A DNA stretch of 64,000 bases, taken from assembly GCA_036172245.1 (NCBI GenBank), contig JAYWIR010000033.1, positions 434,001 through 498,000 of the forward strand. The letters run 5' to 3'. The translations under genes and the position numbers were made by a program. Shown in pieces: positions 1-64,000 of this stretch (positions are counted from its first letter, which is position 1; each line of letters starts with the position of its first letter). The stretch is from Raillietiella orientalis (Eukaryota). The notes beneath the pieces are model-generated. The model ran no database searches and had not been told where the DNA came from. It saw only the letters and a list, made by a program, of their open reading frames with translations.

Positions 1-2161
1 TCGGTCAACAGTAGCTTCGACGCAGAGAGGACGCCAATGTAACACCCAGGTACTTGGCCTTGTTTACCGTTCGGAATCCTCTCCCCGCTAGAGCAAAGAG
101 ATCGAGGATTCCAACGAGCAAGAGCTGACTTTTCTAGGCGTTGATATTTAGACCCAGGCCTTGATCCATCAGGTCCACCACATCCAGAAACGCTCGTTGG
201 TTTCTCTCTCCCTTGATAAGGAAGAGTGGATCATCAGCGTTTGCCAGATAAGTAGGACGCTGGCCATCGATTATCATGCCTTGCAATCGTCCGCACTTCT
301 ATATAAAGGACGACAACGTCTCCATATAGATAACGAACAGCATCGGACTTAGCGAATCGCCCTGTCGGACTCCTCGTTCCATCCTGATTGCTGCCGTCTT
401 CTGGCCGTTGATCTTGATCCGGCAGTACTGGTTCTGGAGTACCGCCCTCACGAATTTGCTGAAGTGTTCCGGAAGCCCTAGCTTCTCCAGAACCTTCAGC
501 AGCATCCCGTGGTCGATGGAGTCGAAGGCCTTCTCCATGTCAGTGAACACCAGCACCAGGTTCTCGCCGACGTATCCACTGAGTCCAACAGTGGCCTGGG
601 CACACTTGACATTGTCCGACATGTGTCGTCCTGGGACTGCAAATGTCTGGAACGGAGAGATCAGCCTCGACATGACCTTGCCTAAGCGGTTGGACCAGAT
701 CTTCCCCAACCACTTGGCATCGGAGTTTAGAATCGAGATTGGCCTCCATTGGGCGATCTCGGTAGAGTCGCCTCCTTTCGGCAGCAATCTCATCCGACTC
801 TCGTAGAAGGACTGAGGTAGTCTGCCTTCTTCCCGGATGCAGAGGGTCAACTGGTGGAACAAGCGCAGGTAGGCGTGCAGGTACCGCTGATAGTGCGTGA
901 TGGGTACACTGTCAGGGCCTGCTGCCACGTCCTTGCGAAGTTGCCCAAACGCAGTCTTCACCTCTTCTTCGGAGAACTCCTCCTCCAGTCTGTTCCGCTG
1001 GAGGTCGTCGGTCCTCTTCTCGAGATAGCTCAAGAAGGCCTGTTGACTAGAGCGACACAGCTGTTGTCGCCTGAAGTGTTTCGTGTAATGCCTGTGAAAG
1101 GCATCCACGATGTCCTCAGACGACTGTCGCTTTCGGCCGTCGTACTGGATGCAGAAGATATCTGTTGCCAGATTTCTCTTCTCCAGCACGCCGACTTCCC
1201 CTTTTATGTTATTGAGGACGTACCCACTCTCGTACTGATCGAAGTACTTTGAGAGGGAGCGATCTCGGATGTTCAGCTCCCGGTACGCCTCTTGCCTCGA
1301 GCGCCTATCCCCGAACTGCATGTTCGCAAACAGGTGTATCCTTTGTTTCAGGCTGTCTCAGTCGGCGACTCTTCGGATTGTTGTTGCCTTCAGAATCGTC
1401 TCCAGGACAGCCTGATTTCCGGGATGGGTTTCGAACCAGGCAGGCATGCTGATGAGCGCCGCCCTGGTGCCTTGCCTTCGCCGAGGATTGTCCGTTCTTA
1501 GGGAAAACCGCACCAGGGGGTGATCGGACACCGTGGTCATAATGTCTCGAAAACCCTGGATTCGATTCCTAAGTTCGGTGCTGTGCAGGACGTGATCGAT
1601 CGGCTTGTGACTTGCAGTTCGACACACCAGTCCGAACTCGTCGGATAACCGCCGATACGCCGTCCTTCCTCTGGCGTCTTCGGAGTGAGTGATCTCATCC
1701 AATATGTTGAGATCGCCAGCAACAATCACGACGTCCTTGGAAGCAACCTTTTCACGGAGTGCTGCATGCAGCGCCTCCGTACAACGATGTTTTAGCCTGT
1801 GCGGTCCGTACACGTTCACCAGGATGAGGTGAACAGTAGCGGACCAGGCGAGTCGCACGCCGATGATTCGTCCGGGTTGGGGTCAGAACACTTTCAGAAT
1901 AGTGGGGGCCAAGTTGTTCTTTATTAGGACCGCCACTCTCTGCGTGTTCCGTTCTCCCTCGCTGACGAAAATCTGCCCGTTGAATCGCCGTTCCATTTGC
2001 TTGCTAATCTCGAGACCCATCTTGTGGGTCTCCTGCAGGCACACTATGTCTTGTTGTGCGATGGTCCGCACAATCCTTCTTCTTTTTCCCTGGTCGACCA
2101 TACCGTTTACATTTTAGGAGGCGATGTTCAGCCTCCTGGCGGTCGATAGGGAAGAGGCCAT
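1..2161 (-). pseudogene. A1 ORF2 (APE endonuclease plus RT), disrupted
   Basis: Motifs LQETH, GDLN, IDH, SDH, WRPISILN, DMEKAFD, GVRQGDSLSP. The SWN codon has become a stop and there are frameshifts. Confidence 0.9.
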
Positions 2162-2174
2162 AAAAGGGGAAGAC

Positions 2175-3962
2175 CTATTTCTTGGCCTTCCTGAGCTTCT
2201 TCTGTCTGAGAGAGCGTGCTCTTCCAGACAATGAAGAAGCAGCGGGCTTCTCGCTGCCGGCGTCACTCTCATTTCCGGTGAGGTCGGTGACTTCCGCCTC
2301 GTCCGTCGAGTGTTCGGCCAGCTCGATCAGTTGTCGAGTTAGCGTCTCCATCTGGACCTTGGCGCAGAAGTTCGCCTTTACGTCGAGAAGCTGTTCCTCT
2401 AGCTTTTTGCGTTCAGCGACCTCCACAACCTATGTGATGTTCTCTTGTGCAGTGCAGATCTTCTGCAAGATTTTCTCTTGCTGGGGACCGCTCTGCACCT
2501 CTAGGACTATATTAGCCAGTAATAATAACTCCTCCGTAGATTGCAGGGCCTCCTGCGACGCCGGAGAGGCTAGGGCTTTTTCTTCATCCGCGCCTTCCTG
2601 CGCTACCTCCATCTTCTCGCCTTCTTGCTCTTTACCTTCCAGGATAAGAGGGGTTTCTTGCTCCTTGACGAGCATCCTTTTCTTTCCTTTCTTCCCCACC
2701 TGTATGAAGCCGTCTTCCGATACCGGGACGGCTTCTTTCACCTTCTTCGGCCTTCCTGCCTTCTGAGGCTGTTCCGCCTCCTTGGTGTTTCTCTCTCTCA
2801 CGGGAGAGAGACCTCGAATCCTTCTGCAGTTTGCAAACTCCGGACAGCTCCATTTGGCATGTCCGTGTTTCTTGCAGAAGGAGCACACCTCCGGCTGCGG
2901 GCAGTTTCGGACTTGATGTCTAATTTTGCCGTAGCGGGAACAACGACACGTTGGGCAAGCGCCGTCCCTGTGGCCGAACTGCTTGCACCCGGTGCAGAAT
3001 ATCGGCTGTTGCCGGTAACGCACGTTCACTCCTTCAGATTGTTCGTCAAGAACGGCTAATCCAGGGATCACAGCTCCCTCTTTCAACTTCATTTTGGCGA
3101 TCATGTCGCCAGAAAATATTTTTCCAGAGAAGTTCTGGAATTCAAGGTCCAGAACTTCCCCATACTGCTCCAAAAAGTTCCACACCGTTAGTTGCGGTGT
3201 GAGGATGGAGATGCCGTTCAGAATGACGGTTGTGTATGGCATCTCGCCAACACCACAAACCATCCTCCCTTGTATATTGATCCCCTTCTGGATCAATAGC
3301 TCTCTAATCTCTTCACAGCCTGTGAAGACTGTGAACCCGTTGTTTGCTGGCATGATCGCCTGTATGCGATCAAAATTCATGTCCGTTTTATCGAGGGACA
3401 GATACACCTCCCTGATATTATTGAATTTGATTAGCCCAGTCTTGAAAATGATGGGCTTTACATTCGGCCCTAACTCCACGATCGGTCGATCCACCTTTTG
3501 GACTTTACCGCATAGCGGCTTCCCGAAATTTCTTGGTAGGTGGACACTCGCTTGTCCAGCCGCCACCGACGCATAGGAAAAGGGCTGCGCCGCCGCAGCC
3601 GAACAAGATGGCGTCTCGCCCTGAACCGCGTGGACGCCCGCGGGTCCTGCCTGGGACGCCGCCGCTCCGAGCGCAACCCTCGACGTCGCCACCTTTGCCG
3701 CCGCGGGCGGCACCCTCGGCATCGCCGCCGCAGGCGCGACCTTCCCCGCCGCGGGCACGATCCTCGGCGTCGCCGCCGCGGGCACGACCTCCGCCGTCGT
3801 CGCCGCGGGCACGACCCTTGGCATCGCCGCCGCCGGCGCAGCAAAGCCCGCCGCGGGCGCGAACCTCGGCATGCCTGCCACCGCCTCGCCGTTGCCGCAC
3901 GTTACCTCCATGGCTTCCATGGGGGACGACGGTCTCTCCACTCCTCTTCTAGGTGCCTGCAT
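2175..3962 (-). pseudogene. A1 ORF1, gag-like nucleic-acid-binding protein with a premature TAG
   Basis: CX2CX4HX4C knuckles (CTGCKQFGHRDGAC, CSFCKKHGHAKWSC). Colinear with the intact A2/A3 ORF1. Confidence 0.9.
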
Positions 3963-4129
3963 CCTGGCAGCTGGTCTTGCTGCACGGGACCACTGCAGGT
4001 CTTCCGCCGCGATCTCCTCGGAGCTTCTTTTCTAGTTTCGTTTGGAAAACTTCGCCTCTCCGGGCACACACGAGCACAATGAACTGATTAAGTTGTCAAG
4101 TGCACAATACTTCGAGCCGCGGAGCAAGT

Positions 4130-4145
4130 TCACCGACTCGGCAGG
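4130..4145 (+). repeat. Family A TSD TCACCGACTCGGCAGG between A1 and A2
   Basis: Identical 16-mer at 9769 and 15404; variants at 47329, 52894 and 61230. Confidence 0.9.
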
Positions 4146-4279
4146 GTTCCCCAAGTCCCACAAGGGGTGGGGTAAGTTTATTTTTCTATAAAAATACAAA
4201 ATTTACATTCGCACTCTCATTCACTCAATACAAACATTTTGCACTTGAGGGTCCTTGGGTTGCACTAGAGTTCTGCTTT

Positions 4280-7200
4280 TCAGGAGGGAATTCCAGCTGG
4301 TTGGTCCCGGGCGTCGTCCTGGATCCTCTTCAGGATGAATCGGTACGTCCAGGCGTGGATCTTCCCGCAGTTCCTGATGCCGATTTCCCTCTTCAAGAGC
4401 CCTTGTAGGATCTCCATCGGTGGTGCGGCTCTTCTGGCTTTCCTCATTTTCCACCACCGCACAAGTATGGCGGTGATGAAGAGGGCTATGGTCGTCCTCA
4501 CCATGGGATTGTAACAGGGAACATTACCATCCCCATAAAATATCCCGGCGAGGATCTCCATAACGGACTTGTTGGTAAGTCCTATGATCCTTTTCAGGAT
4601 CAGGCAGTCATGCAGCAGTGTGGGACACGTCAAGACGTGAAGTCTCGTGTCGTCGTCTCCACATGCTGCGCAGTCTCGGTCTTCCCGTCTTCCTGTGAAG
4701 TGCTGCAATCGGGACCCACTCTGGATTCCTCCGTGATAAAACATCAGGAAGTCATCCTGGGTGCCCGGCGGAAGGTCACTCCTCCAGAGCGTCGTGCCGA
4801 TCGCTAACAGGTTGAACCGCTCACTCCCGTAGCGTTCGGTGGCTTCCTGGAGGGCACTGGTGTCACGGTCGTTTTCTTGGATAAGCCTTCGGAGGTTTGT
4901 TCTGGTTACCCTCGACCATGCGAAGTCGTTGTGGTTGAACCACACTTCGCGGGTCCTGAGGGTAAACCTTCCTAACATCATCTCTGTATACCGAAGTATA
5001 CGTGTTTGATGTAGGTAGCCTCCTCGCCTCCACTCCTGGATTTGCAGTAGGGTAACTCTGGACCGCTGGTAGATCCAGCTTCTCGTGTCCGGCGGGACAG
5101 GAAGCACTCAAGGGATCACCAGGATGGACTCGTCCTGCCAGAGTTCCCTGCTTCGCGGCACGATCTTGATCTGGTGCTTCCGCACCAGCCGTTGCTCCCT
5201 CCTCCAGGTCGGGTCGATTGTTATCCATTCCCCTACTTTGCCTAGCAACGCAGTCATCAGGCCTTCCGAGTTGTTAAGCAACAACGCGTAGGCCCTGTGC
5301 GCCGCATACGGCCAGTCATCCCAGTAAGTGGCCATGTCCAGGATGTGTCGCGTATCCATGATTTCCATGGAATGTGCAAGCGACTTCATCCCGGAACCGC
5401 CTAATTCCCTGGGACGACACAGGGGTTTCAGTCTTACTCTTGGACGATAGTGGCCCCAGAGTGTTTTTCTTTGCAGCTTGTCGAACTCCCTAGTAGTGTC
5501 CTTGTTCATCCTCGCGGAGGCCGCCCCGAAGAGCACTCTCGGAAGGAGTACTCCGTTCCATATTGTTGCCTTTCGCTTCATCCCAAGGTCCGTTCGGGTG
5601 TACTTGGCTGCTTCCTTCGCCGTTTTCCCCAGGATTTCTTTCCACAGCAGCTTCGACGCAGAGCCGTCGCCGATGTAGACTCCCAGGTACTTGGCCGTGT
5701 CCACCGTACGGAATCCACTACCCGTTAGAGTGGAGAGATCCAGGATTCCGACGGGCAAAAGCTGGCTCTCTGGGAATTGATTTTTAAGCCCAAGCCCTGT
5801 TCCATCTGGTCCACCACATCCAGAAACGCACGCTGATTTTTCTCTCCCTTGATGAAGAAGAGTAGATCATCGGCGTATGCCAGATGGGTAAGACGCTGGC
5901 TATCGATGGTAATCCCGCTTATTCGTCCGCTCTTCTCGATAAAGGACGACAACGCCTTCATATAGATAACGAACAGCATCGGACTTAGCGAGTCCCCCTG
6001 TCGGACTCCTCGTTCCATCCTGATTGCTGCCGTCTCCTGGCCGTTGATCTTGATTTGGCAGTACTGGTTCTGGAGTACCGCACTCACGAAGTTGCTGAAG
6101 TGTTCCGGAAGCCCTAGCTTCTCCAGAACCTTCAGCAGCATCCCATGGTCGATGGAGTCGAAGGCCTTCTCCATGTCAGTGGACACCAGCACCAGGTTCT
6201 CGCCGACGTATCGACTTAGTCCAACAGTGGCCTGGGCACACTTGACATTGTCCGACATGTGTCGTCCTGGGACTGCACATGTCTGGACCGGAGAGATCAG
6301 CCTCGACATGACCTTGCCTAAGCGGTTGGACCAGATCTTCGCCAACCACTTGGCAACGGAGTTTAGAATCGAGATTGGCCTCCATTGGGCGATCTGGGTA
6401 GAGTCGCCTCCTTTCGGCAGCAATCTCATCGGACTCTCGTAGAAGGACTGAGGTAGTCTGCCTTCTTCCCGGATGCAGAGTGTCAACTGGTGGAACAAGC
6501 GCAGGTAGGCGTGCAGGTACCGCTGATAGTGCGTGATGGGTACACTGTCAGGGCCCGCTGCCACGTCCTTGCGAAGTTGCCCAAACGCAGTCTTCACCTC
6601 TTCTTCGGAGAACTCCTCCTCCAGTCTGTTCCGCTGGAGGTCGTCGGTCCTCTTCTCGAGATAGCTCAAGAAGGCCTGTTGACTAGAGCGACACAGCTGT
6701 TGTCGCCTGAAGTGTTTCGTGTAATGCCTGTGAAAGGCATCCACGATGTCCTCAGACGACTGTCGCTTTTGGCCGTAGTACTGGATGCAGAAGATATCGG
6801 TTGCCAGATTTCTCTTCTCCAGCACGCCGACTTCCCCTTTTAGGTTATTGAGGACGTACCGACTCTCGTACTGATCGAAGTACTTTGAGAGGGAGCGATC
6901 TTGGATGTTCAGCTCCCGGTACGCCTCTTGCCTCAAGCACCTATCCCCGAACTGCATGTTCGCAAACAGGTGTATCCTGTGTTTCAGGCTGTCCCAGTCG
7001 GCGACTCTTCGTATTCTTGTTGCCCTCAGAATCGCCTCCAGGACAGCCTGATGTCCGGGATGGGTTTCGAACCAGGCGGGCATGCTGATGAGCGCCGCCC
7101 TGGTGCCTTGCCTCCGTCGAGGATTCTCCGTTCTTAAGGAAAACCGCACCAGGGGGTGATCGGACACCGTAGTCATAGTGTCGCGAAACCCCTGGATGCG

Positions 7201-7797
7201 GTTCCCAAGTTCGGTGCTGTGCAGGACGTGATCGATTGGCTTCTGGCTTGCTGTTCGCCAGACCAGTCCGAACTCCTCGGATAGCCGTCGATACGCCGTA
7301 TTTCCTCTGGCGTCTTCCGAATGAATGATCTCATCCAAGATGTTGAGATCGCCAGCAACTATCACGACGTCCTTAGATGCGACCTTTTGCCGGAGTGTTG
7401 CATGCAGAGCCTCCGCACAACGATGTTTTAGCCTGTGCGGCCCGTACACGTTCAACAGGATAAGGTGAACAGTCGCGGACCAGGCCAGTCGCACGCCGAT
7501 GATTCGTCCGGGTTGGGGACAGAACACTTCCAGAATAGTGGGGGCTAAGTGGTTCTTTATTAGCACCGCCACACCCTTCGTGTTCCGTTCTCCTTCGTTG
7601 ACGAACATCTGCCCGTTGAATCGTCGTTCCATTCGCTGGCTTATCTCCAGACCCATCCTGTGGGTCTCCTGCAGGCACACGATGTCTTGTTGTGCGATGG
7701 TCCGCACAATCCTTCTTCTTTTTCCCTGGTCGACCACACCGTTTACGTTCCAGGAGGCGATGTTTATCCTCCTGGCGGTCGATAGGGAAGAGGCCAT
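4280..7797 (-). pseudogene. A2 ORF2 (APE-RT-zinc finger), nearly intact
   Basis: SWNVNG, LQETH, GDLN, SDH, HLAYADD, KYLGVYI, CAAC..RLHVLTC across three ORF pieces. Confidence 0.95.
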
Positions 7798-7810
7798 AAA
7801 AGGGGGAGAC

Positions 7811-9598
7811 CTATTTCTTGGCCTTCCTGAGTCTCTTTTGTCTGAGAGAACGTGCTCTTCCAGACAATGAAGAAGCAGCGGGCTTCTCGCTGCCGGCGTC
7901 ACTCTCCGTACCTGTGAGGTCGATAATTTCCGCCTCCTCCGTAGAGTGTTCCGCCTGCGCGATCAATTTTCGAGATAGCGCCTCTATTTCGACCTTGGCG
8001 GAGAAGTTCGTTTTCACCTCGAGAAGCTGTTCCTCTAACTTCTCGCGTTCAGCGACCTCCACCACCTGGTTGATGTTCTCTTGTGCAGTGCAGATCTTCT
8101 GCAAGATTTTCTCTTGCTGAGGACCGCTCTGCACCTCCATGATCTCCTCCGCCAGTGTTGCCAACTCCTCCGTAGTCTGCAGAGCTTCCTGCGACACTTT
8201 AGTGGCTTCCTGTCTCTCTTCCTTCGCGGCTTCCTGCGCTACCTCCATCTTCTCGCCTTCCTGCTCTGGTGCTTCCAGGATTTGAAGAGATCCTTGCTCC
8301 TTGACGAGCATATTCCTCTTTCCCTTCTTTCCCACTTCTATGAAGCCGTCCGCCGACACCGGGACGGCTTTTTTCACTTTTTTCTGCCTTCCTGCCTTCT
8401 GAGGCTGCTCGGCCTCCTTGATGTTTCTCTCTCTCACGGGAGAGAGACCTCGAATCCTTCTGCAGTTTTCAAACTCCGGACAGCTACATTTCGCATGTCC
8501 GTGTTTCTTGCAGAAGGAGCACACCTCCGGCTGCGGGCAGTTTCGGACTTGATGTCCTACTTTGCCGCAGCGGAAACAACGACACGTTGGGCAAGAGCCG
8601 ACCCTGTGACCGAACTGCTTGCACCCGGTGCAGAATACCGGTTGTTGCCGGTAACGCACATTCACTCCCTGGGATTGTTCGTCAATAACGGCCAATCCAG
8701 GGATCACCGCTCCCTCCCTCAACTTCATCTTGGCGATCATGTCGCCAGAAAATATGTTTCCAGAGAAGTTCTGGAAATCAAGGTCCAGAACTTTCCCAAA
8801 CTGCTCCAAGTAATTCCACACCGCTATTTGCGGTGTGAGGATGGAGATGCCGTTTAAAAAGACGGTTGTGTATGGCATCTCGCCAATACCACAAACCATC
8901 CGTCCTTGTATATTGATCCCCTTCTGGATCAATCGCTCTCTAATGTTTTCACAGTCTGTAAAGACTGTGAACCCGTTGTTCGATGGAATGATCGCCTGAA
9001 TGCGATCAAAGTCTATGTCCGTCTTGTCGAGGGACAAAATGACCTCCCTGATGTTATTAAATTTTATTAGCCCCGTCTTGAAGATAATGAGCTTCACGTT
9101 GGGGCCTATTTCCACTATTGGTCGGTCCACTTTTAGTACTTTTCCGCTAAGCGGCTTACCGAATTTCCTAGTTGGGTGGACACTCGCCTGTCCAGCCGCC
9201 ACCGACGCATAAGAAAAGGGCTGCGACGCCGCAGCCGAACAAGATGACGTCGCTCCCTGCACCGCGTGGACGCCCGCGGGTCCCGCCTGGGACGCCACCG
9301 CCGCGGGCGCAAACCTCGACGTTGCCGCGGTTACCGCCGCGGGGGGCACCATCGGCATCGCCGCCGCAGGCGCGACCTTCCCCGCCGCGGGCACGATCCT
9401 CGGCGTCGCCGCCGCGGGCGCGCCCTCCGCCGTCGTCGCCGCGGGCACGACCCTTGGCATCGCCGCCGCCGGCGCAGCAAAGCCCGCCGCGGGCGCGATC
9501 CTCGGCATGCCTGCCACCGCCTCGCCGTTGCCGCACGTTACCTCCGTGGCTTCCATGGGGGACGACGGTCTCTCCACTCCTCTTCTAGGTGCCTGCAT
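7811..9598 (-). CDS. A2 ORF1p, 595 aa: Ala/Pro repeat, putative RRM-like region, three CCHC knuckles, Glu/Lys-rich C-terminus
   Basis: Open from MQAPRRG to KAKK*; same length as A3 ORF1. Confidence 0.9.
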   Translation of the reverse strand: MQAPRRGVERPSSPMEATEVTCGNGEAVAGMPRIAPAAGFAAPAAAMPRVVPAATTAEGAPAAATPRIVPAAGKVAPAAAMPMVPPAAVTAATSRFAPAAVASQAGPAGVHAVQGATSSCSAAASQPFSYASVAAGQASVHPTRKFGKPLSGKVLKVDRPIVEIGPNVKLIIFKTGLIKFNNIREVILSLDKTDIDFDRIQAIIPSNNGFTVFTDCENIRERLIQKGINIQGRMVCGIGEMPYTTVFLNGISILTPQIAVWNYLEQFGKVLDLDFQNFSGNIFSGDMIAKMKLREGAVIPGLAVIDEQSQGVNVRYRQQPVFCTGCKQFGHRVGSCPTCRCFRCGKVGHQVRNCPQPEVCSFCKKHGHAKCSCPEFENCRRIRGLSPVRERNIKEAEQPQKAGRQKKVKKAVPVSADGFIEVGKKGKRNMLVKEQGSLQILEAPEQEGEKMEVAQEAAKEERQEATKVSQEALQTTEELATLAEEIMEVQSGPQQEKILQKICTAQENINQVVEVAEREKLEEQLLEVKTNFSAKVEIEALSRKLIAQAEHSTEEAEIIDLTGTESDAGSEKPAASSLSGRARSLRQKRLRKAKK

Positions 9599-9768
9599 CC
9601 TGGCAGCTGGTCTTGCTGCACGGGACCACTGCAGGTCTTTTGCCGCGATCTCCTCGCCGCTTCTTTTTTTTTTGTTTCTTCTGGAAAACTTCCCCTCTCC
9701 GGGCACACACGAGCACAATGAACTGATTAAGTTGTCAAGCGCACAATACTTCGAGCCGCGGAGCAAGT

Positions 9769-9784
9769 TCACCGACTCGGCAGG
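9769..9784 (+). repeat. Family A TSD between A2 and A3
   Basis: TCACCGACTCGGCAGG. Confidence 0.9.
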
Positions 9785-9872
9785 TTTCCCCAAGTCCCAC
9801 AAGGGGTGGGGTAATTTTATTTTTCTATAAAAATACAAAATTTACATTCGCACTCTCATTCACTCAATACAA

Positions 9873-12800: not shown

Positions 12801-13435
12801 GGACACCGTAGTCATAGTGTCGCGAAACCCCTGAATGCGGTTCCCAAGTTCGGTGCTGTGCAGGACGTGATCGATTGGCTTGTGGCTTGCTGTTCGCCAG
12901 ACCAGTCCGAACTCCTCGGATAGCCGTCGATACGCCGTCCTTCCTCTGGCGTCTTCCGAATGAATGATCTCATCCAAGATGTTGAGATCGCCAGCAACTA
13001 TCACGACGTCCTTAGGGGCGACCTTTGCCGGAGTGTTGCATGCAGCGCCTCCGCACAACGATGTTTTAGCCTGTGCGGCCCGTACACGTTCACCAGGATA
13101 AGGTGAACAGTCGCGGACCAGGCCAGTCGCACGCCGATGATTCGTCCGGGTTGGGGACAGAACACTTCCAGAATAGTGGGGGCTAAGTTGTTCTTTATTA
13201 GCACCGCCACACCCTTCGTGTTCCGTTCTCCTTCGTTGACGAACATCTGCCCGGTGAATCGCCGTTCTATTCGCTGGCTTATCTCGAGACCCATCCTGTG
13301 GGTCTCCTGCAGGCACACGATGTCTTGTTGTGCGATGGTCCGCACAATCCTTCTTCTTTTTCCCTGGTCGACCACACCGTTTACGTTCCAGGAGGCGATG
13401 TTTATCCTCCTGGCGGTCGATGGGGAAGAGGCCAT
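9873..13435 (-). pseudogene. A3 ORF2 (APE-RT-zinc finger, about 1190 codons), two lesions
   Basis: Pieces 13001-13435, 12021-13020 and 9873-12020; YADD present. Confidence 0.95.
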
Positions 13436-13448
13436 AAAAGGGGAAGAC

Positions 13449-15236: not shown

Positions 15237-15403
15237 CCTGGCAGCTGGTCTTGCTGCACGGGACCACTGCAGGTCTTCCGCCGCGATCTCCTCGGAGCTT
15301 CTTTTCTAGTTTCGTTTGGAAAACTTCGCCTCTCCGGGCACACACGAGCACAATGAACTGATTAAGTTGTCAAGCGCACAATACTTCGAGCCGCGGAGCA
15401 AGT

Positions 15404-15419
15404 TCACCGACTCGGCAGG
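15404..15419 (+). repeat. Family A TSD at the A3/C1 junction
   Basis: TCACCGACTCGGCAGG reads on into C ORF1 (SPTRQERSDLPTVKK). Confidence 0.9.
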
Positions 15420-33182: not shown

Positions 33183-33197
33183 CACCGGCTTTCGGCG

Positions 33198-52893: not shown

Positions 52894-55840
52894 TCACCGA
52901 CTAGGCAGGAGACGAGGAATCTCTCGACTGTCAAGAAGGTGACTTCGTTGCCGTTTGTTGAAGGCGTAGCGAAAGCAACGCCCTCAGAGAGAGCAGCGAA
53001 AATCCCGGAGGTTTCCGCAACTATTGTCGCTCAAGCCTCCGGAAATAGCGAAGTCGAATGGAAGGATGTGGAAAGGAGGAAAGAAAAATCTCCCAAAAAA
53101 GCTTCGCAACATCCACCCTTGAGCTCTTCCAAAGAAAAAAGCAGTCGCGGGAATACGAAAACACGCGCGGCTTGTGCCTTTTCTCAGGAAAGCCAGCGCC
53201 TTTAACGCGTGCAAGTCCGCTTCTGTGACCGCCCAGAAGACCATTCCGGTGCAATCGGACGGATGCAAGCGCACTTCGATCGTGCGAGCATCACACTACG
53301 CAAAGGAGTCCCATAGCGCCGCTGAACGAGCGCCCGATCACATTAGTGAATTCGGACGTCAAGTTGTTTTCGAAACTTTTGTTGGCGCGGACGGGTAGGA
53401 TCGCGGAATCCTTGGTAAGTCCTGAGCAGACGTACGCTGTTCGTGGGAGGTCCATGGACGCGAATCTCTTGTTCATCCGCACATGGCTGCAATTGCAGCA
53501 TCGTCTGGCGGTAAAACGTCGTGCGGAAGCGACGCCTTCGATCTTCCATCGATTGAGGCGCGGGACGCAAATGGAGACAACGGAAGCCTTGGCGGTTGCA
53601 GTCGATTTGCACAAAGCTTTCGATTGCGTGAACCAAAACTTTCTTCTTGAGCTTTTGGAACGTCTGGGTCTTCCGGCATCCCTGTTGGTGTACTTGCGCT
53701 CCTGCTGTCGCCACGCGATTACATCCATTGTTTTCAGTGGCTGTCGCGTGTATAGCGTGCCGGTACGACGAGGAATTAGGCAGGGTGCTAGCTAAAGCCC
53801 GCTGCTCTTCAGCATCTATATTGAATTGGTACTGGAGGCTTACAGGCTGACGCTAGCTAATCTGCCGAGCTCCTGTCCAGGTACGCCGGCCGTGGCAGAC
53901 TATGCCGACGACCTGCTTCTCCTGTTGCCCATGTCTATCCCGGCGACATCGCTTAAAGACTTCTTTGAGTTGATTCGTCGCGGTGCGGGCGTGAGCGTTA
54001 ACAGGAGTAAGTGTATGGTTGTTCCGGTGGGTGCGACGTGGAAGGGGCAGTCCGACTGGATCGACTTTGAGATTCATACGGGCAGGTACCTCAGGAACTT
54101 TGGCGTGCCGTTGGGCGACTTCTGCATCTCAGAAGCGTAGTCGGGCTGCCTTGGAAAGGCAGAGCGTGCACTTGGCCCGTTTTCAGGAGGCGAGTGAGTC
54201 TTGTGGGAACGTGCCTCCTTGTGGAACACCTTCGTTGCCCCCTCCTCCGCCTCCTGGTTTTTGTTTGTGCACTCCCCCAGGAAGTCAAAGTTTGGGCGCA
54301 GCGCCTTCTACGCAAAGCATTGTGGGGCGCTGCAAGATCCCGTGTTAGACTTAGAGACTTAGTGGCGGCGCCTCAGGATGCAGGCTGGGGCATCCTAGAC
54401 TTGAAAAGCATCGAGCTGCATATGCAGTTTCTAATGCTGCGGCTCTGTGCCAAGATTTGGTGTACGCCGTGGTGCTCACCCGCACGACTCATTCTAAGGC
54501 GCTGCACGGGAAGCGAGGGACTGCTTTCGTTGCTACCTTACTTTCGGCACACAAGAATAGGGTTTGGCTTCCCGCCGAGGCAGCTGTTCTCACTGCTGGA
54601 AGTCCAACGCTGGATATTTTGCCGCCCCATGAACATTAATGCGTGGCGGCAGTAATCTTCTTCATCGTGGGCAGCTTCCGAAGGAACGCCTTCGAAAGAT
54701 CTTCGATGCCTGCGACTTCTTTTCAGTCATCAAATGGACGGAGTCATGAAGGACAAGAAGATGTCGGATCATCTGGCCGCCACACCACTCGCCGCAGCGC
54801 TGTCTGCTTGCAGGGCAAGCAACGACGGTTGCCTATCGGCGGAATGGGAGTTCTTCTGCAAAATAGAGGGAGTCAGTAAGCTTCTCGGCAGCTGGACGAC
54901 AAAGTAGCTGGTGCAAGCAGCCACTCCTCGGAATCAAGCGAAGGGCCTGCTTTGATGCAGCGAACATTTAAGTGTGCATCTTGAGGAGATAGAAATTCCC
55001 CCCGTTTATTTGGACAGCTTCGTGTTTCTTCTACAGTGGAAACAAGATGTGCACAATGTACAAAATTTTTGTACATTGTGCATCACACTGTAATAAACAG
55101 CGAAGTATCGTTTCCGAGGGAGCTGCTTTGCCAAACTGTTTAAGGTGCCTAGAGATCGAGTCTTTTCCGCACCTTTTGCTGGACTGCGGTGACCTCCGGG
55201 AACTTTCGCGAAGGCTCACTTCGGCCATTATGCTACAAGGAGGCACTGCCATTGATGTGCTGCGGCGCTTCTTCAGCAGAAATGGACGTTTGGTTGGCGC
55301 GATTGCCGAAACCATATGTTGCGTTCGCTCCATCGTGAAGGCTATCTACGCCCTGGAGTTGTCAGCGCAGCGAAGGTGGGCTAGTCTGCTTGCAGCTTAA
55401 TTCATGGAGAAGGCTTAAAGGTGGTCTCATCTTCGTTACAAGGTGAAAGAGGACATCACCGGCCTACATCGCCGGTTTTCATACCTTTGAGAACGGCGTA
55501 ATCTGGTGACCCCTGCGACCTCTCGCCCACCTATACTAAGTCTCCGTTCGCTCGGTAAAATTTCCGGTGCCCATGCCTTTATCCCCGTGTCTTCCAGAGC
55601 GATCCCAAAGACCCTTATCCCGTCCTCCTTATTCATGTTTTCATTTTATTTTGGTTTCTTTGTGTTCCCCGCCCTCCCCACACCGTCCGCAAAACTGTTA
55701 CTCTTGCCTGCGTGCCAGCAATATTCTCTTTATTCTTGTTCGGTCGTCCATTGGAAGTTTGGTTCCCAACTGATTTATTTTACATGATTTTTTTTGTTGA
55801 TGTAATATGCAATAAACGCCCCGTCTTGACCACGTAAGAA
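52894..55840 (+). mobile_element. C2 3' portion, with an internal deletion that removes the APE
   Basis: Matches C1 15404-15870, then C1 17497-20004; YADD near 53900. Confidence 0.92.
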
Positions 55841-57756
55841 ATCTCTTGCGCCTGTTGTGCGGAGATCACGTGGATCTCCTGCAGCAGCGCAAGTTCGTAC
55901 GACTCCAGAACGGCGGTCATGTCTCGTCTCCTGCCGTCGTCTGTCATTGCGTTCACGTTCTAAACGGCGTTGCGCAGACGACGGCAAAAGTAGATTCCCG
56001 GCATTACTGCTGGGGAGATTAAGGTGTTGGGGAGCCCTCCTCTTCCGATGAGGGCGGGATGTCCATGGTAGTTTCGGCCTTCTCAGGCACCTGAGGCACC
56101 TGTTCGGCCTCCACATCTTCCATCCCCTTCGTGTCCACGCTTGGAATTCCCTCAAGCGACGGGTCCCGCGAGTTTCCCACGCTCATGGCACCCTCATTCG
56201 CAGATGCCATCTCTTCCCCCTCGACGGGGGAGACGAGCTTCCTCGGCTTTGTGGACTTACGTCCAGCCTTCTTGCGGGGTGCCGGGGAAACGGAGGCTGC
56301 GCTTCCGGCCTCCACCTCAGGGTCGGAAGTGATGGACTCCTGAGGGGAGGCCGGACGCCTTACGGCCGTTTTGCCAGCCTTGCATGGTTTGAGCTGCAAC
56401 AAGGCCGCCAGTTCCTCTTCAACTCGCGCGAAGGCTACGTCATCGATGGTGGTGTCGATGACGGACGCCGCCGCCGGCTCGCTCTTCTCGCTGTTGACAG
56501 AGTCAACAGAGGAGTGGTCGCCGGTAGCGGCAAGTTCTTTCTGGCAGCGTTTGCCAACATCGACAACGCATTCGACGACGAAGCTGCAGATTTTAATTAT
56601 CGCGCTAACCTGCTCTTTCTCCTTCTGTTGGTAGGCGATTTTTTTCTCCAACCTCCTCTCGTTCTTTGATTTTTTGGCCGTAGCCACCTGCCACCCATGC
56701 TCCTGGCTAGCTTTCTTGACTTGTTCGGCGTTGTTCGCCGAGTTCTCGGGTGCGGCCTGGGCCTTGGGAGCGGGTGGCACAGCTGTCTCCGCCAGCCTTT
56801 TCTGCAGAAGCCGGGCGCGTTTTTTAAGGCTTCTCTTGGAAACCACACGCACTGCTGCTTCTGGGCACACCCCCCTCGTGTGACCCATTGTGCCGCATAC
56901 TTGGCACTGCACGTTGGGACACGTCTTTTTGAGCTGGCCCGACGTTTTGCAGAAGCCACAGTATTTCGGCTTCCCCACATACCAGAGGTCAACGGTTTCG
57001 CCTTCGAACACCAGATTGTGTGGAAGAGTGCACCCCTCCCGAACGGTTACGCGCGAAGCCGTGAGGCCGTGTTGCAGCCCCGTGTAGTCCTCGAAAGGAC
57101 TAACTTTCGTCCACTGCGCGTGGACCGTTCCGAACTGTTCCAGAGCAGCGCGAACCTGTTCTTTGCGCATTCGCGCGGTTACGCCTAACAGGTGGACCAC
57201 CATGCTGCGGTCTGCCGTAGTAAGAAGGAGCCTACGCGTCCCTATCACAAAGGGGGTTTTGAGCAGTCGTTGGGCAAGCTCTGAATGTTTGCAGATGATC
57301 TTAACGTATTGACTTTCGCTGCGGATGGTCACAGCGCGGACCTCCTCCTCTTTCACATCGAGAGCGCGCATGCCCTTCGAAAAGGCGCGCGCTATCTAAA
57401 GAATAGAGATTGCCTACGTTGTAGAACAATGAGGAATTGTACCCCTCCTCTACATAGGCCGACAATTCCGCCGCGGCTGCAGCGATGGCGCCGACACAAC
57501 GGTGCTCCACGCCCGCACTGCAGCGGGGACCGATTCTGTGAGGGCGGATGCCCCACCTCCATCGCCTCTAGGGGCGACGTTGCCGCCGCTTCCTGGCTCT
57601 CCTTCGCTTCTGGGGGCGGCGTTGCCGCTGCCCCCGGGCCATCTTTGGTGATCGCGTCAGGCATCGCTGCCTGATCGACCACCGATCCACACTACGCTTG
57701 CACTGGGGGAGACTTCCTGGCACAAGGTGCACCAAGAATACACGTCCGCCCTGGAG
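55841..57756 (-). mobile_element. B4 5' portion (ORF1 plus APE start)
   Basis: ORF 56019-57371 with CGFCKTSGQLKKTC and CQVCGTMGHTRGVC. ORF2 ATG at 56004. Confidence 0.92.
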
Positions 57757-59845
57757 TAAGAAAGGCGGTCGACTGCGTATATCAGGATATCCTCCTGGAG
57801 GTCCCGGAACGCCTCGGGCTTCCGGTGCACCTCGTGGCGTATATTCGCGCTTGTTGGCGCCACGCACTAACTTTCATCCCTTATAGCGGCTGCCACGTGT
57901 ACAGCGTGCCGCTGCGGCGGGTCATCAGCCAGGGCGACAGTTTAAGCCCATTGCCCTTCAGCATCTTCTTTGAGTTGGTGCTAAGTGCGTACAGGCTGAC
58001 GCTGGTCAACTTGCCGAGCCTTTGTCCAGGAACGCCTTTTGTGGCGGCCTATGCTGACGACCTGCTTCTTCTTTTACCCATGAGCACCCCGGCGTTCAGT
58101 CTCGAGGATTTCTTCGAGCTGATTCGCCGGGGAGCGTACGTGAGCGTAAGCAGGAGCAAGAGAGTGGTTGTACCTATTGGTGCTGCGTTTAAGGGGCAGT
58201 GCGACTGGATCCGCCTGTGGATGTCGACCGCTTCGTCCACTCAAAATCTGGGCGATCCGCTGGGGTGCATCAGCCCAGTGGAAGTGCGGTCGGACTGCCT
58301 TCGGAAGGCTACGAGTGCGCTGAGCCCGTTCCAGCATGGCAGGTTCCTCCTGTCGAAGCGGGTCGCGATATGGAACACTTTCGTTGCCCTTCTTTTGCGC
58401 CCTCTGTTTTTGGTTAGCCCGCCAACCTACTCGGTGAAGATTCAGGCGCACAGCCTGATTAGGAACGCTTTTTGGGATCCTGCGAGGTCCAGGACCCGCC
58501 TGAAAGCCTTGGCAGCTCCACGACGGGATGCTGGCTTAGGCATTCTGACGCTGGAGAGAATCGAGCTGCAGGTGCATCTTCGAATGTTGGCCCTTTGCGC
58601 CAACGTTTGGTCCACTCCTTTCTGCGCTCCTGCGCGCCTGCTCCTGCGGCGCTGCACCGGCAGCGAAGGACTTCTGTCGCTGCGTCCGCACACGGAGCAC
58701 CCCACGACAAGATTCGGTTTCCCTTTGAAACCACTCTACCGGATCCTGGCACCCCAGGAAAGGATCTCCTGCCGCCTCAGGAAATTTGAAGCCTGGCGGC
58801 AGGAACCGTTGCATGGCTGGGCAAAGCACCAGGATGTTTCCCTCCTGGAACCCTGTTGCGTTCACCTCTCCCCGTAATGCAGGGTGGATGATGTCTGAAG
58901 CAGCCAGGAGAAGTGGACCCCCCTGGCCGTCACCCCTCTCGCCGACGCACTGTAAGCCCTCAGGGTAAGAGATGACAGCTTCGAACCGGCGAGATGAGAG
59001 GTCGCCTGCACCATTGGAGGAACAACACGACCTATTGGCGGCTGGAGGACTTGCGAGCTGGCAGACGCCGCCACGCCTATTCACATCTCGAAGGGACTCC
59101 TCCGGTAGAGCGAACACTTGAGTGTGTCCGCCGAAGAACTTGTGATCCCTCCCTCTTGTTTGACACTTCTGCCTTCCCCCTTTCGTGAAAGCAGGACTTC
59201 ATCATGGTGGTGCATTGGGGTTTTGACTCCAACCAGCAGAAGAACCGTGTTTCCGGGGGAGTTGTCTACTTAAACTGTAAGCGGTGCGGGGAAATGGGAA
59301 CGCTTCCGCACCTGCTTATGGACTGCAATGCCCTTCAAGGACTTTGGCGGAGGCTGGCCTCAGCTCTCCTGCACCAGGGGGACACCGCGAGGGACTTGAT
59401 GCGCCGCTTCTTCACGCCAGGCGGCCTGTCTATGAGTGCTGTAATTGCAACCGTGTGTTGCACCCGTGCCAACGACAAGGCCCACCGAGAGTTGGAGAAG
59501 CTGACCATTCATCCTCAGACCAACTGATTAGCCAGCACAAGCATGTCGTCGGCTGCCGAGTGGGCCCATCTGCCACAGGACGTAAGGAGAGAGATCGTCG
59601 GCATCTATCGCCGGTTTTGAATGGAAGGAACGGACTCGCCAAAGACCCCTCTCCTCTGCCCACCATATTTTTATTTTACATTTTTATAGTAGTGTATTTG
59701 TGGTTCCCTTTCTCCCGTAGCGGACTTTCGCCATAACGACCTGCGTGTCGGGGATCCCACCCCCTTTGTATCTTGTTTTCCCCATTGTGAGGTACCCTGT
59801 TCTCGGATAGTTCTTAACAAACGCCTTGGAGCACTCAAGTTACAA
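57757..59845 (+). mobile_element. Element F 3' portion (RT from KAFD, zinc finger, 3' UTR)
   Basis: ORF 57825-58877 with SQGDSLSP and AYADD; CKRC..LPHLLMDC (59204-59527). Confidence 0.9.
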
Positions 59846-59885
59846 ATAGCCGCCATACAGAGATTCGTTCGATCTAGTGCGCTCG
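59846..59885 (-). mobile_element. 40-bp island of B-type APE coding sequence between the F and C3 insertions
   Basis: atagccgccatacagagattcgttcgatctagtgcgctcg aligns without gaps to B3 36810-36849 atagccgccctccggagatccgttcgatctcttgcgcttg. Confidence 0.8.
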
Positions 59886-61243
59886 CACAGTGCAGACGTG
59901 TTTTCGCGTCTCTCCGCGTCCGCAATCGAGCATCTTTGTGCGTGCGTTTTCGCTAGCACTTTTGTGTTTCTTGGAAGTGGACGGAGCCGCGTTGTGCAGT
60001 ATGGCTATTTCTGCTAATGGATTGAAGAAGACAGCCGTCGAACCCAATTCAATTGGAATGGAAGCGGCCACATCCTCCGTGACAGTTTCCCCGCCTTCGA
60101 TTAAGCGCTACACCGCCGTCACCTCCCAGGGAACAGAACCCTGCGATGCAGAGTTGCAGGCTTATGTGGCATCCGGCTACATGCCCACACTTCGTTATAA
60201 GGTCAATGGGTCCCTTTACGGGAGGAACGAACGTGAGCTCATCGATGAGCTCGTCCGGATCGGCGTTCGGGAGGAGGAGCTCCTTGCCATCATGCCTGCG
60301 GGCAGGATGGAATACACCAAGATTCGCTGCAAAAACGCGGCACTTGTGCAGCGCCTTCTCCGTACTCTGTTGTCCATCGGTGGCAAGGAAGTTGTGCCTT
60401 CAGTGATGGATGACTCCTTTGTCGTCCAATTGTTAGACATCGAGCCGGAAATCTCCGACCGCGATGTCGTAAGTGTGCTGGCGAAGTTCGCTACCGTGGA
60501 CGCTCTGTGGAGGAGGCCAAATCCTCTGAAGGTTTCTCCTCTTTGCACATTGGACAAGCCTCCGCGAGGATCACCATCCCGAACAGGCGTGTTGTGCTCC
60601 AGCAGCTGCAGGTGAACGGCACGATCGTTCACCTGCGGTTTCTAGGACAGACTCGCGCGTGCGAGCATTGCGGCAAGGGGGGACACCGAATAAACGAATG
60701 TCCCACCCCGAAATGCCGCTATTGCGAAGAAACCGGGCACGTTATAAAAAAGTGCCCGGTCCTTGCAAAGAAAAGAGCAGCAGCGGAAGTTCATCGCGTC
60801 CAAGAGACCAACGCACGAAAGGCCGCTGCCTCCAAGAAAAAGTAGTGTTCGCGGAAGCTTGGCAAAAGAGCCAAGCAATACGCGGCAATACAAAAGGCGC
60901 CCCCGCCCGCAACGTCACAAAAGGGAGAAATCGCGGCGATGAAGTCAATTAAAAAGGGGTCTGAGGGTTCGACGCGTGCCGTGCCCGTTCTCGCTGCCGT
61001 AATGGGAAACACCTGTTCAAGCCTGGAACCGTGGAATATCCGAAGAACCTCGGTAGGAAAGGTAGGTAAGCAAGAAGATCGCCACAGTGCGAAGACCTCC
61101 AGCTTTAACCCGCTGTCTCTTCCGATACCGCCAAACTCCCAGTCCAACGTAGGGGTCTCTGCGGCGGATACCAAACCCGTAGCAAGGCGCGGCGCGCCGC
61201 GCAAAAACACACTGCAGGCAGCGGCATCTTCACCGACTTGGCA
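59886..61243 (+). mobile_element. Family C copy C3, 5' UTR plus ORF1 up to the A target
   Basis: GYMPTLRYKV, CEHCGKGGHRINEC, CRYCEETGHVIKKC. Ends in TCACCGACTTGGCA. Confidence 0.9.
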
Positions 61244-63438
61244 ATCTTTCAGAAGTCCCACAAGGGGTGGGGTAGATTTATTCTCTATTTTTGAAAACAC
61301 ATTTATTAGACAATCACATTCTTATAACATACCCACTTAACATCACTCCCAAGACCTTGGGGATATCACAAGTTCTTCTTTCAGGGTGGACTTCCAGATG
61401 TTTGGTCCCGGGCGTCGTCTTCAATCCACTTCAGGATGAATTGGCAGGTCCAGGCATGGATTCGTCCACAATTCCTGATGCCGATATCCTTCTTGATGAG
61501 TCCATGAAGGATCTTTATCGTAGGTGCGGCTCTCCTGGCTTTCCTCATCTTCCACCACCGCACAAGTATGGCGGTGATGAAGAGGGCAATGGTCGTCCTC
61601 ACCATGGGATTGTTACAGGGAACATTACCATCTCCCTGAAACATCCAGGCGAGGACCTCTGTTGTGGTGTTAATGGTGAGTTCAATGATACTTTTCAGGA
61701 TCAGCCAGTCGTGTAGCAATGTGGGACACGTCAAGACGTGAAGACTTGTGTCGGTGTCGCCACATACTGCGCAGTTTCGATCTTCCCGTCTCCCGGTGAA
61801 GTACTGAAGTCTGGACCCGCTTTAGATTTCTCCATGATAAAACATCAGGAGGTTCTCCTGCGTGTCCGGCGAAGGGTCACTCCTCCAGACCGTCGTTCCG
61901 ATCGCTAACAGGTTGATCCGGTCACTCCAGTAGCGATCGGCGGCTTCTTGGAGGGCACTGATGTCTCGGTCATCTTCTTTGATGAGTCTTCGGAGGTTTA
62001 TTTCTATCATCCTAGACGACGCGAGGTCGTTGTGGTTGATCTACATCTCGCGGGTCATGTTGGTGAGCCTTCCTAACATGATCTCTATATACCGAAGTAT
62101 ACGAGTGTGATGTAGGTAGCCTCCTCTTCTTCACTCCTAAATTCGATGCAGGGTAACTCTGGTCCGCCGGTAGATAAAGCTTCTCATATCCGAAGGAACC
62201 GGAAGCATCCATGGGATCACCAGGATGGACTCGTCCTGCCAGAGTTCCCTAATTCTCTGCACGATCTTGATTTTGCCCTTACGGACCAGCCGTTGCTTCC
62301 TCCTCCAGGTTGGGTCGATGCATGTCCACTCTCCTGCTCGGCCAAGCAGCGCAGTCATCAGGCCTTTCGAGTTGTTCAGCAACAACGCATAGGTCCTGTG
62401 CACCGCATATGGCCAGTCATCCCAATGGGTGGCGATATCCAGGATGTGTCGCATATCCATGATTTCCATGGAATGTGCAGGCGACTTCATTCCGGAACAG
62501 CCTTCTTCCCTGGGACGACACAGGGGTTTCAGACGAACTTTTGGGCGATAGTGGCTCCACAGTGTTTTGCGTTGCAGCTTCTCTACCTCTCTCGTGGTTT
62601 CTTTGTTCACTCTAGCGAAGGCGGCCTCAAAGAGTACCTTTGGAAGGATTACTCCGTTTGACAGGTTAACCCTTCGCTCCATCCCAAAGTCCAGTCGAGT
62701 GTATTTGGCTGCCTCCGTGGCCGTTTTCTTCAGGATTTCCGCCCACAGTAGCTTCGATGCGGAGTCGTCGCCTATGTAGTGTCCCAGGTACTTGGCTGTG
62801 TCTACCGTACGGAATCCACTCCCTGTGAAAGCGAAGAGATCCAGTATTCCGACGGGCAAAAGCTGGCTCTTCCAAGCATTGATCTTCAGGCCCAGTCCAT
62901 CTCTCATAAGGCTGACCACATCCAGGAACGTCAGTTGATCCCTCTCACCTCTTATTAAGAAGAGGAGATCGTCCGCGTAGGCTAGATGGGCTCGCTTCTG
63001 GTCGTCTACGTTCACTTCGTTCAAACGTCCGTTCTTCTCGACGAAAGAAGAAAGCTCTTCCATATAAATAACAAACAGCATCGGACTTAGCGAGTCGCCC
63101 TGCCGAACTCCTCGTTCCATCCGAATGACAGCCGTTTCCATTCCATTGATTTCATTCCGGAAGCGTTGATTCCGGAGGATCATTTGCACGTTACTGAAGT
63201 ATTCTGGAAGTCCCAGCTTTTCCGAAATCTTCAGCAGCATCTCGTGGTCGACTGTGTCGAAGACTTTTTCCATGTCTGTGAACGCAAGCACCAGGTACTC
63301 GCCGACGTATCGGCTAAGTCCCACGATAGCCTGGGCGCACTTGACATTGTCCAGCATGTAGCGTCCAGGTACTGCACACATCTGAACATTCAATATCAGC
63401 CTCGACATTACTTTGCCTAAGCGGTTGGCCTTGATCTT
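61244..63438 (-). mobile_element. Family A copy A5, 3' 2.2 kb only, diverged
   Basis: ORF 62137-63408 with DMEKVFD, GVRQGDSLSP and HLAYADD; A-type 3' end. Confidence 0.92.
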
Positions 63439-64000
63439 ACTGCCCGCTCGCCAGGTGAGGCGAGCACCACGGCCTCGCTTTCCCAGCCGTGATCACGGCT
63501 GGGAAAGCGATCGCGAGGGCGATCGCATCTTCTCGTCGTGACGTGCTGGAACGTCAGCGGTCTCCAACGCGGAGAGAAGAGGCGACTAGTAGCTAACGCT
63601 CTGCGCGCCTTCGACTTGACGCTCCTGCAGGAGATTCACAGCATCTCCGAAGACCAGGCTGCCGAAATCAAACGGCATGTGGGCGGAACGCTACATTATA
63701 GGTGCTGCGTCGAACGTACGTGCAGCGTCGCTTTCCTCGTACGAGGAACTATGGCGGGTGCGGTGCGCGGCGTTCGCTTCGACACGGAAGGCCGAGTGGG
63801 ACAGCTTGTACTCAAGTTGTCCGAATCGATAGAACTTGTCGTAACGAACGTGTACGCGCCGAGCAGTGCTGGATGATGGGCCAGAAGGATCGAGTTTCTC
63901 GGTACCGTTCGAAGCCAGTGGCTCACTCGTTCTCACCCTACTGTGGCGCATCTCATCGCGGGGGACTTTAATATCCACCTGCTGACCGAGAATAGCGCAC
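63436..64000 (+). mobile_element. C3 continuation (ORF1 end plus APE), runs off the window
   Basis: Matches C1 from 16022; CWNVSG, LQEIH, NVYAPS, GDFN. Confidence 0.9.
63475..63510. repeat. Perfect 36-bp palindrome at the C3 ORF1/ORF2 junction
   Basis: tcgctttcccagccgtga|tcacggctgggaaagcga; absent from C1 at 16061-16085. Confidence 0.95.

Follow-up and report, generated by a model that had tools for sequence, protein, structure and literature searches.

The subject of this analysis is a 64-kb stretch of the Raillietiella orientalis genome (assembly GCA_036172245.1, contig JAYWIR010000033.1, positions 434,001 to 498,000 of the forward strand), hereafter "the window", with coordinates counted from its first nucleotide. 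Blocks and strands were mapped by tblastn with open reading frame (ORF) 1 and ORF2 queries derived from the window, plus self-blastn. Essentially all 64 kb proved to be covered by about 24 pieces of L1-superfamily non-LTR (long terminal repeat) elements, that is, long interspersed nuclear elements (LINEs). An earlier reading of the letters alone (the original prediction) had claimed that no host DNA lies between the elements, and the map bears this out; the sole stretch without a match in it, 41143-41560, probably represents the untranslated ends of the two fragments, m and n, on either side. The G+C content is 52-61%, long frames occur on both strands, and neither Rfam nor ARAGORN detected an RNA gene in the window. 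Within these 64 kb, elements of several lineages sit at fixed codons of other lineages, always on the strand opposite to that of their host. We argue below that these junctions probably arose by independent, sequence-specific insertions.

The long ORFs carry RVT_1, Exo_endo_phos and zf-CCHC domains in ORF-wise Pfam searches, with zf-RVT below threshold. The lineage that we call A has the ORF2 layout of the L1 superfamily: a single 745-aa frame contains both Exo_endo_phos (E 5.6e-17) and RVT_1 (E 7e-31). For the B-type elements, the APE endonuclease and the reverse transcriptase (RT) were placed by tblastn. The zf-CCHC matches fell in ORF1 of A and of the E-type element; the translation of A ORF1 shows three CCHC knuckles, and knuckles are also visible in ORF1 of B and C. 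A CCHC-bearing ORF1 with an RNA-binding module is of the plant-L1/Tx1 type. In a search of the PDB, the nearest solved structure was human LINE-1 ORF2p (E 8e-48 for A, 2.4e-29 for B), and R2 proteins were far weaker matches. The poly(A) tail that marks the L1 clade proper is absent: every 3' end is a defined sequence with no A run, A ending in ...GGGGAAACC followed by its target repeat and the B/C/d/F group in AA(T/C)(A/G)AACG.... Tandem Repeats Finder reported only periodic repeats of 27 to 75 nt, all inside A ORF1 coordinates. These repeats, with periods of 27, 36, 48 and 75 nt (3687-3872, 9352-9508, 14935-15146 and 52545-52684), differ in number and sequence among the copies of A, whose N-terminal ORF1 region is rich in Ala and Pro (...AAMPRVVPAA...).

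A is distant from all other lineages present, with about 45% nucleotide identity in the RT and 21-34% amino-acid identity. The non-A lineages form one group, with between-lineage RT likeness of 61-87%. In this group C and F are sisters, B, B' and the d-type elements make up a second cluster, and g stands apart; E (piece e) has no RT within the window.

With guests written in brackets inside their hosts, the left half of the window reads g(+)[ e(-)[ d(+)[ Bfrag(-)[ C1(+)[ A A A ] ], B-full(-) ] ], D(-) ] g, and the right half reads F(+)[ i(-)[ C2(+)[ A ] ] i' ] F, then p(-)[ C3(+)[ A ] ..., with the window start lying within the A array. All 13 host-guest contacts are antisense; leaving out a 16-nt remnant and the g/m junction, which is atypical, still gives 11. 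Neighbours on the same strand occur solely as head-to-tail sets, namely A x3, Bfrag/B-full, e/D and m/n.

The most often repeated site is that of A in C ORF1. The array at the window start consists of three minus-strand copies of A: copy 1 (1-4129), mapped by tblastn and self-blastn, is cut by the window start and retains ORF2 aa 1-710 and ORF1; copy 2 (4130-9768) is full length at 5.6 kb, with an ORF1 of 595 aa that has the three CCHC knuckles, an ORF2 with APE and RT, and a 3' end bearing the 16-nt target repeat at 4130-4145; and copy 3 (9769-15403) is also full length, with its target repeat at 9769-9784. C1 (15404-20013, plus strand) then runs from the A target in ORF1 (codons SPTRQ, 15404-15419) through ORF2 to a 3' end of ...AATAAACGCCCCGGCG...GAG. 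At the second locus, the minus-strand A (47329-52893) falls about 55 nt short of the array copies at its 5' end, and the 16-nt repeat is present on either side of it (47329-47344 and 52894-52909). This A separates the left part of C2 (45987-47328, plus strand; 5' end to the A site in ORF1) from the remainder (52894-55839, plus strand; 3' end at 55839). At the third, an A-like copy (61229-63438, minus strand), 5'-truncated at ORF2 aa 486, follows the left part of C3 (59886-61228, plus strand; 5' end to the A site); C3 resumes at the APE (63439-64000, plus strand), lacking about 600 nt of C relative to C1, and is cut by the window end.

The four visible 3' junctions of A (4130, 9769, 47329 and 61229) fall at one and the same nucleotide; the site is in the SPTRQ codons of C, 157 codons upstream of the ORF1 stop. 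The 16-mer CCTGCCGAGTCGGTGA flanks A at 4130, 9769, 15404, 47329, 52894 and 61230, with 0, 0, 0, 1, 1 and 3 mismatches, respectively. Allowing up to 3 mismatches, this 16-mer occurs 7 times in the window, where 0.77 occurrences are expected, and none of 100 shuffles reached 7.

Two irregularities were seen in the C copies that host A. In the locus-3 A, the 5' junction with C lies about 600 nt past the canonical target (63439-63455; C1 16022-16040), and the sequence at this joint matches the 16-nt target, by eye, at 10 of 16 positions; the joint could be a deletion from the target that ended at a target-like site. C2 has an internal deletion of 1.65 kb with clean breakpoints (53329/53330), corresponding to C1 15842-17497, from the end of ORF1 to the middle of the RT.

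C itself is found in the APE region of B-type elements. Its two 3' junctions (20013/20014 and 55839/55840) and its two 5' junctions (45986/45987 and 59885/59886) all lie at one site, on (G/A)ATCTCTTGCGCTTG, antisense to the host APE just past the LLQE motif and flanked by a repeat of about 15 nt. The hosts, all on the minus strand, are Bfrag (20004-21906), a B-type 5' part that retains ORF1 and ~90 N-terminal aa of ORF2/APE and is interrupted by C1 at the C site (repeat 20004-20018); a B' element, of which i (42341-45986) is the 3' part, cut at the C site (repeat 45972-45986), and i' (55840-57756) the 5' part (repeat 55840-55854); and p (59841-59885), an APE remnant of about 45 nt that has the 3' end of F on its left and the 5' end of C3 on its right, with the C-site repeat at 59871-59885. 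F ends in this same remnant, its 3' end at ~59840 lying about 30 nt to the left of the C site.

The occupancy of the C site differs between its alleles, albeit in small numbers. The ATCTCTTGCGC allele is present in four B-type hosts, three of which are occupied (Bfrag, i and p) and one of which, D, is empty; the diverged alleles of B-full and e are both empty. In these empty hosts the site lies at 36835-36849 (D, perfect), 25545-25570 (B-full, diverged) and 31170-31195 (e, diverged), giving three alleles. Bfrag is 91% like B-full overall, yet it has the D-like allele and is occupied, a contrast that could reflect either escape of the target site or a mosaic origin.

The remaining sites belong to B, B' and the d-type elements. 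B-full (21915-27453, minus strand) is a full-length B of 5.5 kb, with its empty, diverged C site near 25545-25570, and its 5' end adjoins d at the LQDW codons (27453/27454). Between its 3' end and the 5' end of Bfrag lies an 8-nt remnant (21907-21914), possibly a decayed LQDW target repeat. The host of the B pair, d (27454-30450, plus strand), extends from the codons (L)QDW to a 3' end of ...CCCCGGGTGG. In turn, d cuts e (30451-33184, minus strand), an E-type 5' part with ORF1 and the APE up to GFG, right after the GFGV codons. A second d-type 3' end, that of D (33201-38733, minus strand), abuts a 16-nt plus-strand remnant of the GFG site (CCGGCTTTCGGCGATG, 33185-33200) that separates it from the 5' end of e. 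Both d-type 3' junctions (30450/30451 and 33200/33201) thus follow TTCGGCG(T/A)TG, which in host sense encodes GFG plus one codon; one host, e, is on the minus strand and the other is the plus-strand remnant.

B' junctions, one 3' (i, 42340/42341) and two 5' (57756/57757 and 38733/38734), all lie inside the codons DLRKAFD of the RT. The F host is split into h (41741-42340, plus strand), its left half, which covers RT aa 225-~430 of the B_o2b reference and ends ...VDLRKALDV, and k (57757-59840, plus strand), its right half, which runs from the RKAVD codons to a 3' end of ...AACAAACGCCTTGGAGCACTCAAGT. The 3' end of i, inserted at KAFD of F, follows ...CGCAAGGCGTTAGATGTT in h, and the host picks up at AGAAAGGCGGTCGAC in k, leaving a repeat of about 16-18 nt over RKAFD. 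At the other locus, the 5' end of D joins g at GCATTCGAC, 6-9 nt further along; g (38734-40795, plus strand) contains the RT from the AFD codons to the 3' untranslated region.

These positions agree closely with the original prediction, which had placed A in C ORF1 (three loci, five copies), C in B-type APE (three loci), F about 25 nt from the C site, B at LQDW of the D lineage, B' at RT KAFD and D/E-type elements at GFG (two loci each). Every junction that it listed is present: the A copies in C ORF1 and the C junctions in B-type APE were as claimed, the junctions at KAFD and GFG are present at both loci, and the F site, measured at about 30 nt, and the LQDW site were each found at a single locus. 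Its claim that guests lie on the strand opposite to their hosts held at all 13 contacts; its alternation of strand blocks did not hold strictly, as the four head-to-tail sets are on one strand each.

As a correction to the original prediction, D proved to be a mosaic of two lineages. The 5' 4 kb, which meets g at KAFD, is B'-type: positions 1-4000 of the element match i/i' at 82-93%. The 3' 1.3 kb, with its junction at GFG, is d-type, matching d at 69-81% and i at 60-69%. Trees built from the two parts conflict, the support values being 0.988 and 1.000. The two ends of D fall at two sites of the same host, g (3' at GFG, 5' at KAFD), and the simplest account would be a recombination between two neighbouring minus-strand guests that deleted the 850 nt of host between them.

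To the right of D, the end of g is unusual. At 40745-40800 it forms a perfect hairpin with a 16-nt stem (AGCTGTTTTGGAGTGG ... CCACTCCAAAACAGCT), and the AATAAACG-type tail of its relatives is missing. It adjoins a minus-strand ORF1 fragment at aa 116, a type of junction unique in the window. This fragment, m (ORF1 aa 1-116, 40796-41143), and n (C-terminal ORF2 aa 514-574, 41560-41742) are two B-type fragments arranged head to tail on the minus strand (together 40796-41740, their mutual boundary being approximate). Between them, 41330-41560 is AT-rich, contains the short hairpin GGAGAACACTGAGTTCTCC and matches nothing else in the window.

Relatives outside the window are few. Among 5.8 billion clustered proteins, the only close one was P0028, a JGI protein of 619 aa that is uninterrupted, contains an RT and is 65-75% identical to the B/d-type lineages (65% in the match to B ORF2). 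The best protein-database match of A ORF2 was only 27% identical. The ESM Atlas returned generic RVT_1/zf-RVT clusters only; a metagenome scan with a B-type RT alignment gave 36 loci, all distant, with at most ~30% identity over long segments; and a scan of GTDB genomes yielded no relative. An independent public sequencing run had 702 mostly short contigs on 14500-34499, of which 404 were less than 90% alike, and the families are multi-copy there. The joints listed from that run are cross-mappings between homologous copies. One contig of 519 nt reads across from the A 5' end into C; it shows 24 differences and 3 gaps.

Do recurrent junctions of this kind record repeated insertions, or one insertion that was later copied together with its surroundings? 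For C, 200-nt bins on the guest side of the junction show C1 and C2 to be 79-97% alike, and past it their hosts, one a B and the other a B', are only 57-80% alike; overall the C copies are about 90% alike and the hosts about 67%, the drop falling exactly at the C/host junction. Likewise, D and i' are 80-92% alike in their B' 5' parts, compared with 70-80% for the adjoining hosts g and k, so that identity falls from ~86% to ~72% at the B'/host junction. The guests at GFG are only 69-81% alike, and their hosts are on opposite strands. For A in C, identities are similar across the junction, and selection and the 5' ends were therefore used as the test of independence. All pairs of A copies, tandem neighbours included, had dN/dS values of 0.22-0.57, compared with 0.96-1.75 in two wrong-frame controls, as calculated by NG86, a method that is blind to transition bias. 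Synonymous changes made up 44-48% of the differences, where 23% is expected; this excess had p = 4e-9 and 4e-19 for the two pairs of tandem neighbours and reached 5e-36 for locus 1 vs. locus 2. The method can also yield near-neutral values, as it did for C1 vs. C2 (0.65-0.88). The 5' ends of A differ as well. Those in the array are full length; the locus-2 copy, whose flanking repeat is intact, is ~55 nt shorter, and the locus-3 copy has a truncation at ORF2 aa 486 (2.2 kb). The frame breaks differ too, lying near aa 680 in A2 and near aa 138 in A3.

From the identity drops, the dN/dS of A, the differing 5' ends and the frame breaks, we count the same-site insertions as independent, which gives, at fixed sites, at least 5 events for A, 3 for C, 2 for B' and 2-3 for d-type/E; the target-site duplications measure 15-18 nt. 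The original prediction had named descent from one duplicated composite as the case that would overturn it, and this case can be rejected for A in C, C in B-type, B' at KAFD and d-type at GFG. Its core, that each lineage occupies a fixed antisense site of another through independent events, thus holds inside the window, with one locus each for the LQDW and F sites.

These results are best explained, with good probability in our judgment, if the window was built up layer by layer through independent target-primed insertions, each sequence-specific, between lineages of the L1 superfamily, of which there are at least six: A; C paired with F; B, B', d-type and E as a group; and g. Target-primed reverse transcription is marked by defined 3' ends with no poly(A), duplications of 15-18 nt and 5' truncations, and in this process the primer strand carries the antisense of the new copy. 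Under such a mechanism, a lineage would nick one defined sequence of 15-25 nt in the coding region of another lineage. Because the guests are antisense, textbook target-primed reverse transcription would put the first nick in the coding strand of the host. Insertion would leave the guest with a defined 3' end that lacks poly(A) and would duplicate 15-18 nt of the target site, which restores the target on both flanks of the guest. Re-insertion into a restored target would then build head-to-tail arrays (A x3, Bfrag/B-full and e/D) and, in the case of A, arrays of independently derived copies. The specificity may be supplied by the APE endonuclease, perhaps aided by pairing between the RNA 3' end and the target; since the last 16 nt next to A are the target itself, the two contributions are inseparable here. 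The elements may gain by using other LINEs as harmless landing sites. As for the uniform antisense orientation, one may speculate that it is selected or that it is mechanistic, reflecting, for example, access to the displaced coding strand of transcribed hosts.

Other explanations of the same map deserve weighing. A few composite units, such as C with its A or a B-type element with its C, might have been duplicated, or retrotransposed as passengers, with their junctions inherited. Co-linear matches do cross junctions (9769-15841 plus 17498-21618 vs. 47329-57450; 45963-49544 vs. 59862-63438; and 36836-39098 vs. 55841-58129), A and its C flanks show similar between-locus identities, and C1 and C2 have diverged almost neutrally. 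Inherited junctions, however, do not account for identity that drops exactly at the C/host (~90% to ~67%) and B'/host (~86% to ~72%) boundaries, nor for A copies that diverged under purifying selection, unlike a DNA duplicate or an antisense passenger, that are more diverged (85-87% alike) than the C copies that carry them (87-92%), and that differ in their 5' ends. We therefore regard this explanation as very unlikely. Hardly more probable, in our view, is a general preference for LINE-rich heterochromatin or centromeric DNA of the kind attributed to Zepp, with the recurrent positions being microhomology hot spots or chance. Only LINEs occur in the window, self-nesting LINE domains are known for Zepp/ZeppL and Cnl1 (PMC8226300, PMC3446292, PMC9942834), and three junctions (g into m, the F 5' end and the 5' end of the locus-3 A) lie off the recurrent sites. 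Such a preference would nevertheless not be expected to repeat junctions to the nucleotide (A 4/4, C 4/4, d-type 2/2), to give every lineage its own site and its own 3' tail, to place the A-flanking 16-mer 7 times (up to 3 mismatches) against 0.77 expected, or to leave the occupied C sites with one allele in common.

One could also ask whether the nesting is an artefact of assembly, made of chimeric joins between repeat copies. The region consists solely of repeats that are 65-97% alike, and the public run contains only 21% of the words sampled from 20000-29999. Mis-joins do not, however, create matching target-site duplications and complete termini at the junctions, and the independent 519-nt contig spans the junction of the A 5' end with C; an artefact of this kind is extremely improbable.

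Several observations weigh against independent, sequence-specific insertions. The similarity orders of host and guest are congruent for A in C, ((locus 1, locus 2), locus 3), and identities on the two sides of that junction are similar. The near-neutral dN/dS of C1 vs. C2 (0.65-0.88) and the blindness of NG86 to transition bias point the same way. Additional events must be invoked at three places: a recombination step for D, whose ends lie at two different sites; a loss of ~3.1 kb of host at F, the left flank of which is a minus-strand C-terminal fragment; and a host deletion of ~0.6 kb for the locus-3 copy of A. Over the 6-7 distinct sites, the orientation bias has by simple arithmetic a p of only ~0.01-0.02. 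Finally, the evidence comes from one 64-kb window, in which the LQDW and F sites are each represented by a single locus.

How do the arrangements in the window compare with known systems? Among Tx1-clade elements, Tx1L and Tx2L target DNA transposons and Mutsu targets 5S rDNA. The window elements resemble LINEs of the Tx1 and R1 clades in their APE, their sequence-specific integration into multicopy targets, their defined 3' junction and their CCHC ORF1; the Tx1-clade trait of sequence-specific integration with a precise 3' junction is seen here as nucleotide-identical junctions of independent events within the window. As one report describes, APE-bearing LINEs of these clades insert sequence-specifically into RNA genes, microsatellites and transposons, with Keno residing in U2 genes (PMC4640811). 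There the targets are RNA genes, microsatellites and DNA transposons, whereas in the window they are the ORFs of other LINEs.

The other comparison is with LINEs that nest. Zepp of Chlorella and Coccomyxa and ZeppL of Chlamydomonas are L1-type LINEs that nest in their own copies, in clusters thought to be centromeric (PMC3446292, PMC8226300, PMC9940879), and in Chlamydomonas a single ZeppL family is described (PMC9940879). They share with the window GC-rich, LINE-only nested clusters built by insertion into existing LINEs, a trait seen here across the 64 kb, as well as tandem arrays. Zepp/ZeppL is portrayed as one self-targeting family with arrays of 5'-truncated 3' ends and one cluster per chromosome or centromere, whereas the window contains at least six lineages at fixed codons of others, always antisense, with several guests at full length. 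Cnl1 of Cryptococcus is a non-LTR element that prefers to insert into itself and forms nested arrays (PMC9942834). Its nesting is described as tandem, in the same orientation, of one family and subtelomeric; that in the window is cross-lineage, antisense and at fixed codon positions. Full-text literature searches, which covered neither supplements nor the original descriptions of Zepp, found no account of related LINE lineages hitting fixed codons of one another in antisense, a result that is no proof that none exists; a preprint on brown-alga centromeres likewise contained nothing pertinent.

A broader and more tentative proposal, which we put forward as a possibility somewhat short of even chances, is that the window samples a closed intragenomic ecosystem. 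In it, at least six lineages would have specific codons of one another as their main or only targets, the coding strand of the host would always be nicked, and targeting would be mutual (C and F into B-type, B' into F). Hosts might escape through altered target alleles (B-full and e), and the whole would form self-building and renewing LINE-only, centromere-like domains.

Site-specific LINEs survive by landing in multicopy genes, and self-nesting LINEs build arrays that are centromere-like in algae and subtelomeric in fungi. The two themes would meet in a set of related lineages that have differing codon blocks of one another as their targets. If true, the arrangement would show how the target specificity of APE-type elements can diversify within one clade, and both biochemical work and programmable insertion could draw on its naturally matched endonucleases and target sequences. 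It would also provide a concrete case of parasite-on-parasite dynamics in one genome, possible target-site escape included, and LINE-only chromosomal domains could in this way grow with no damage to genes.

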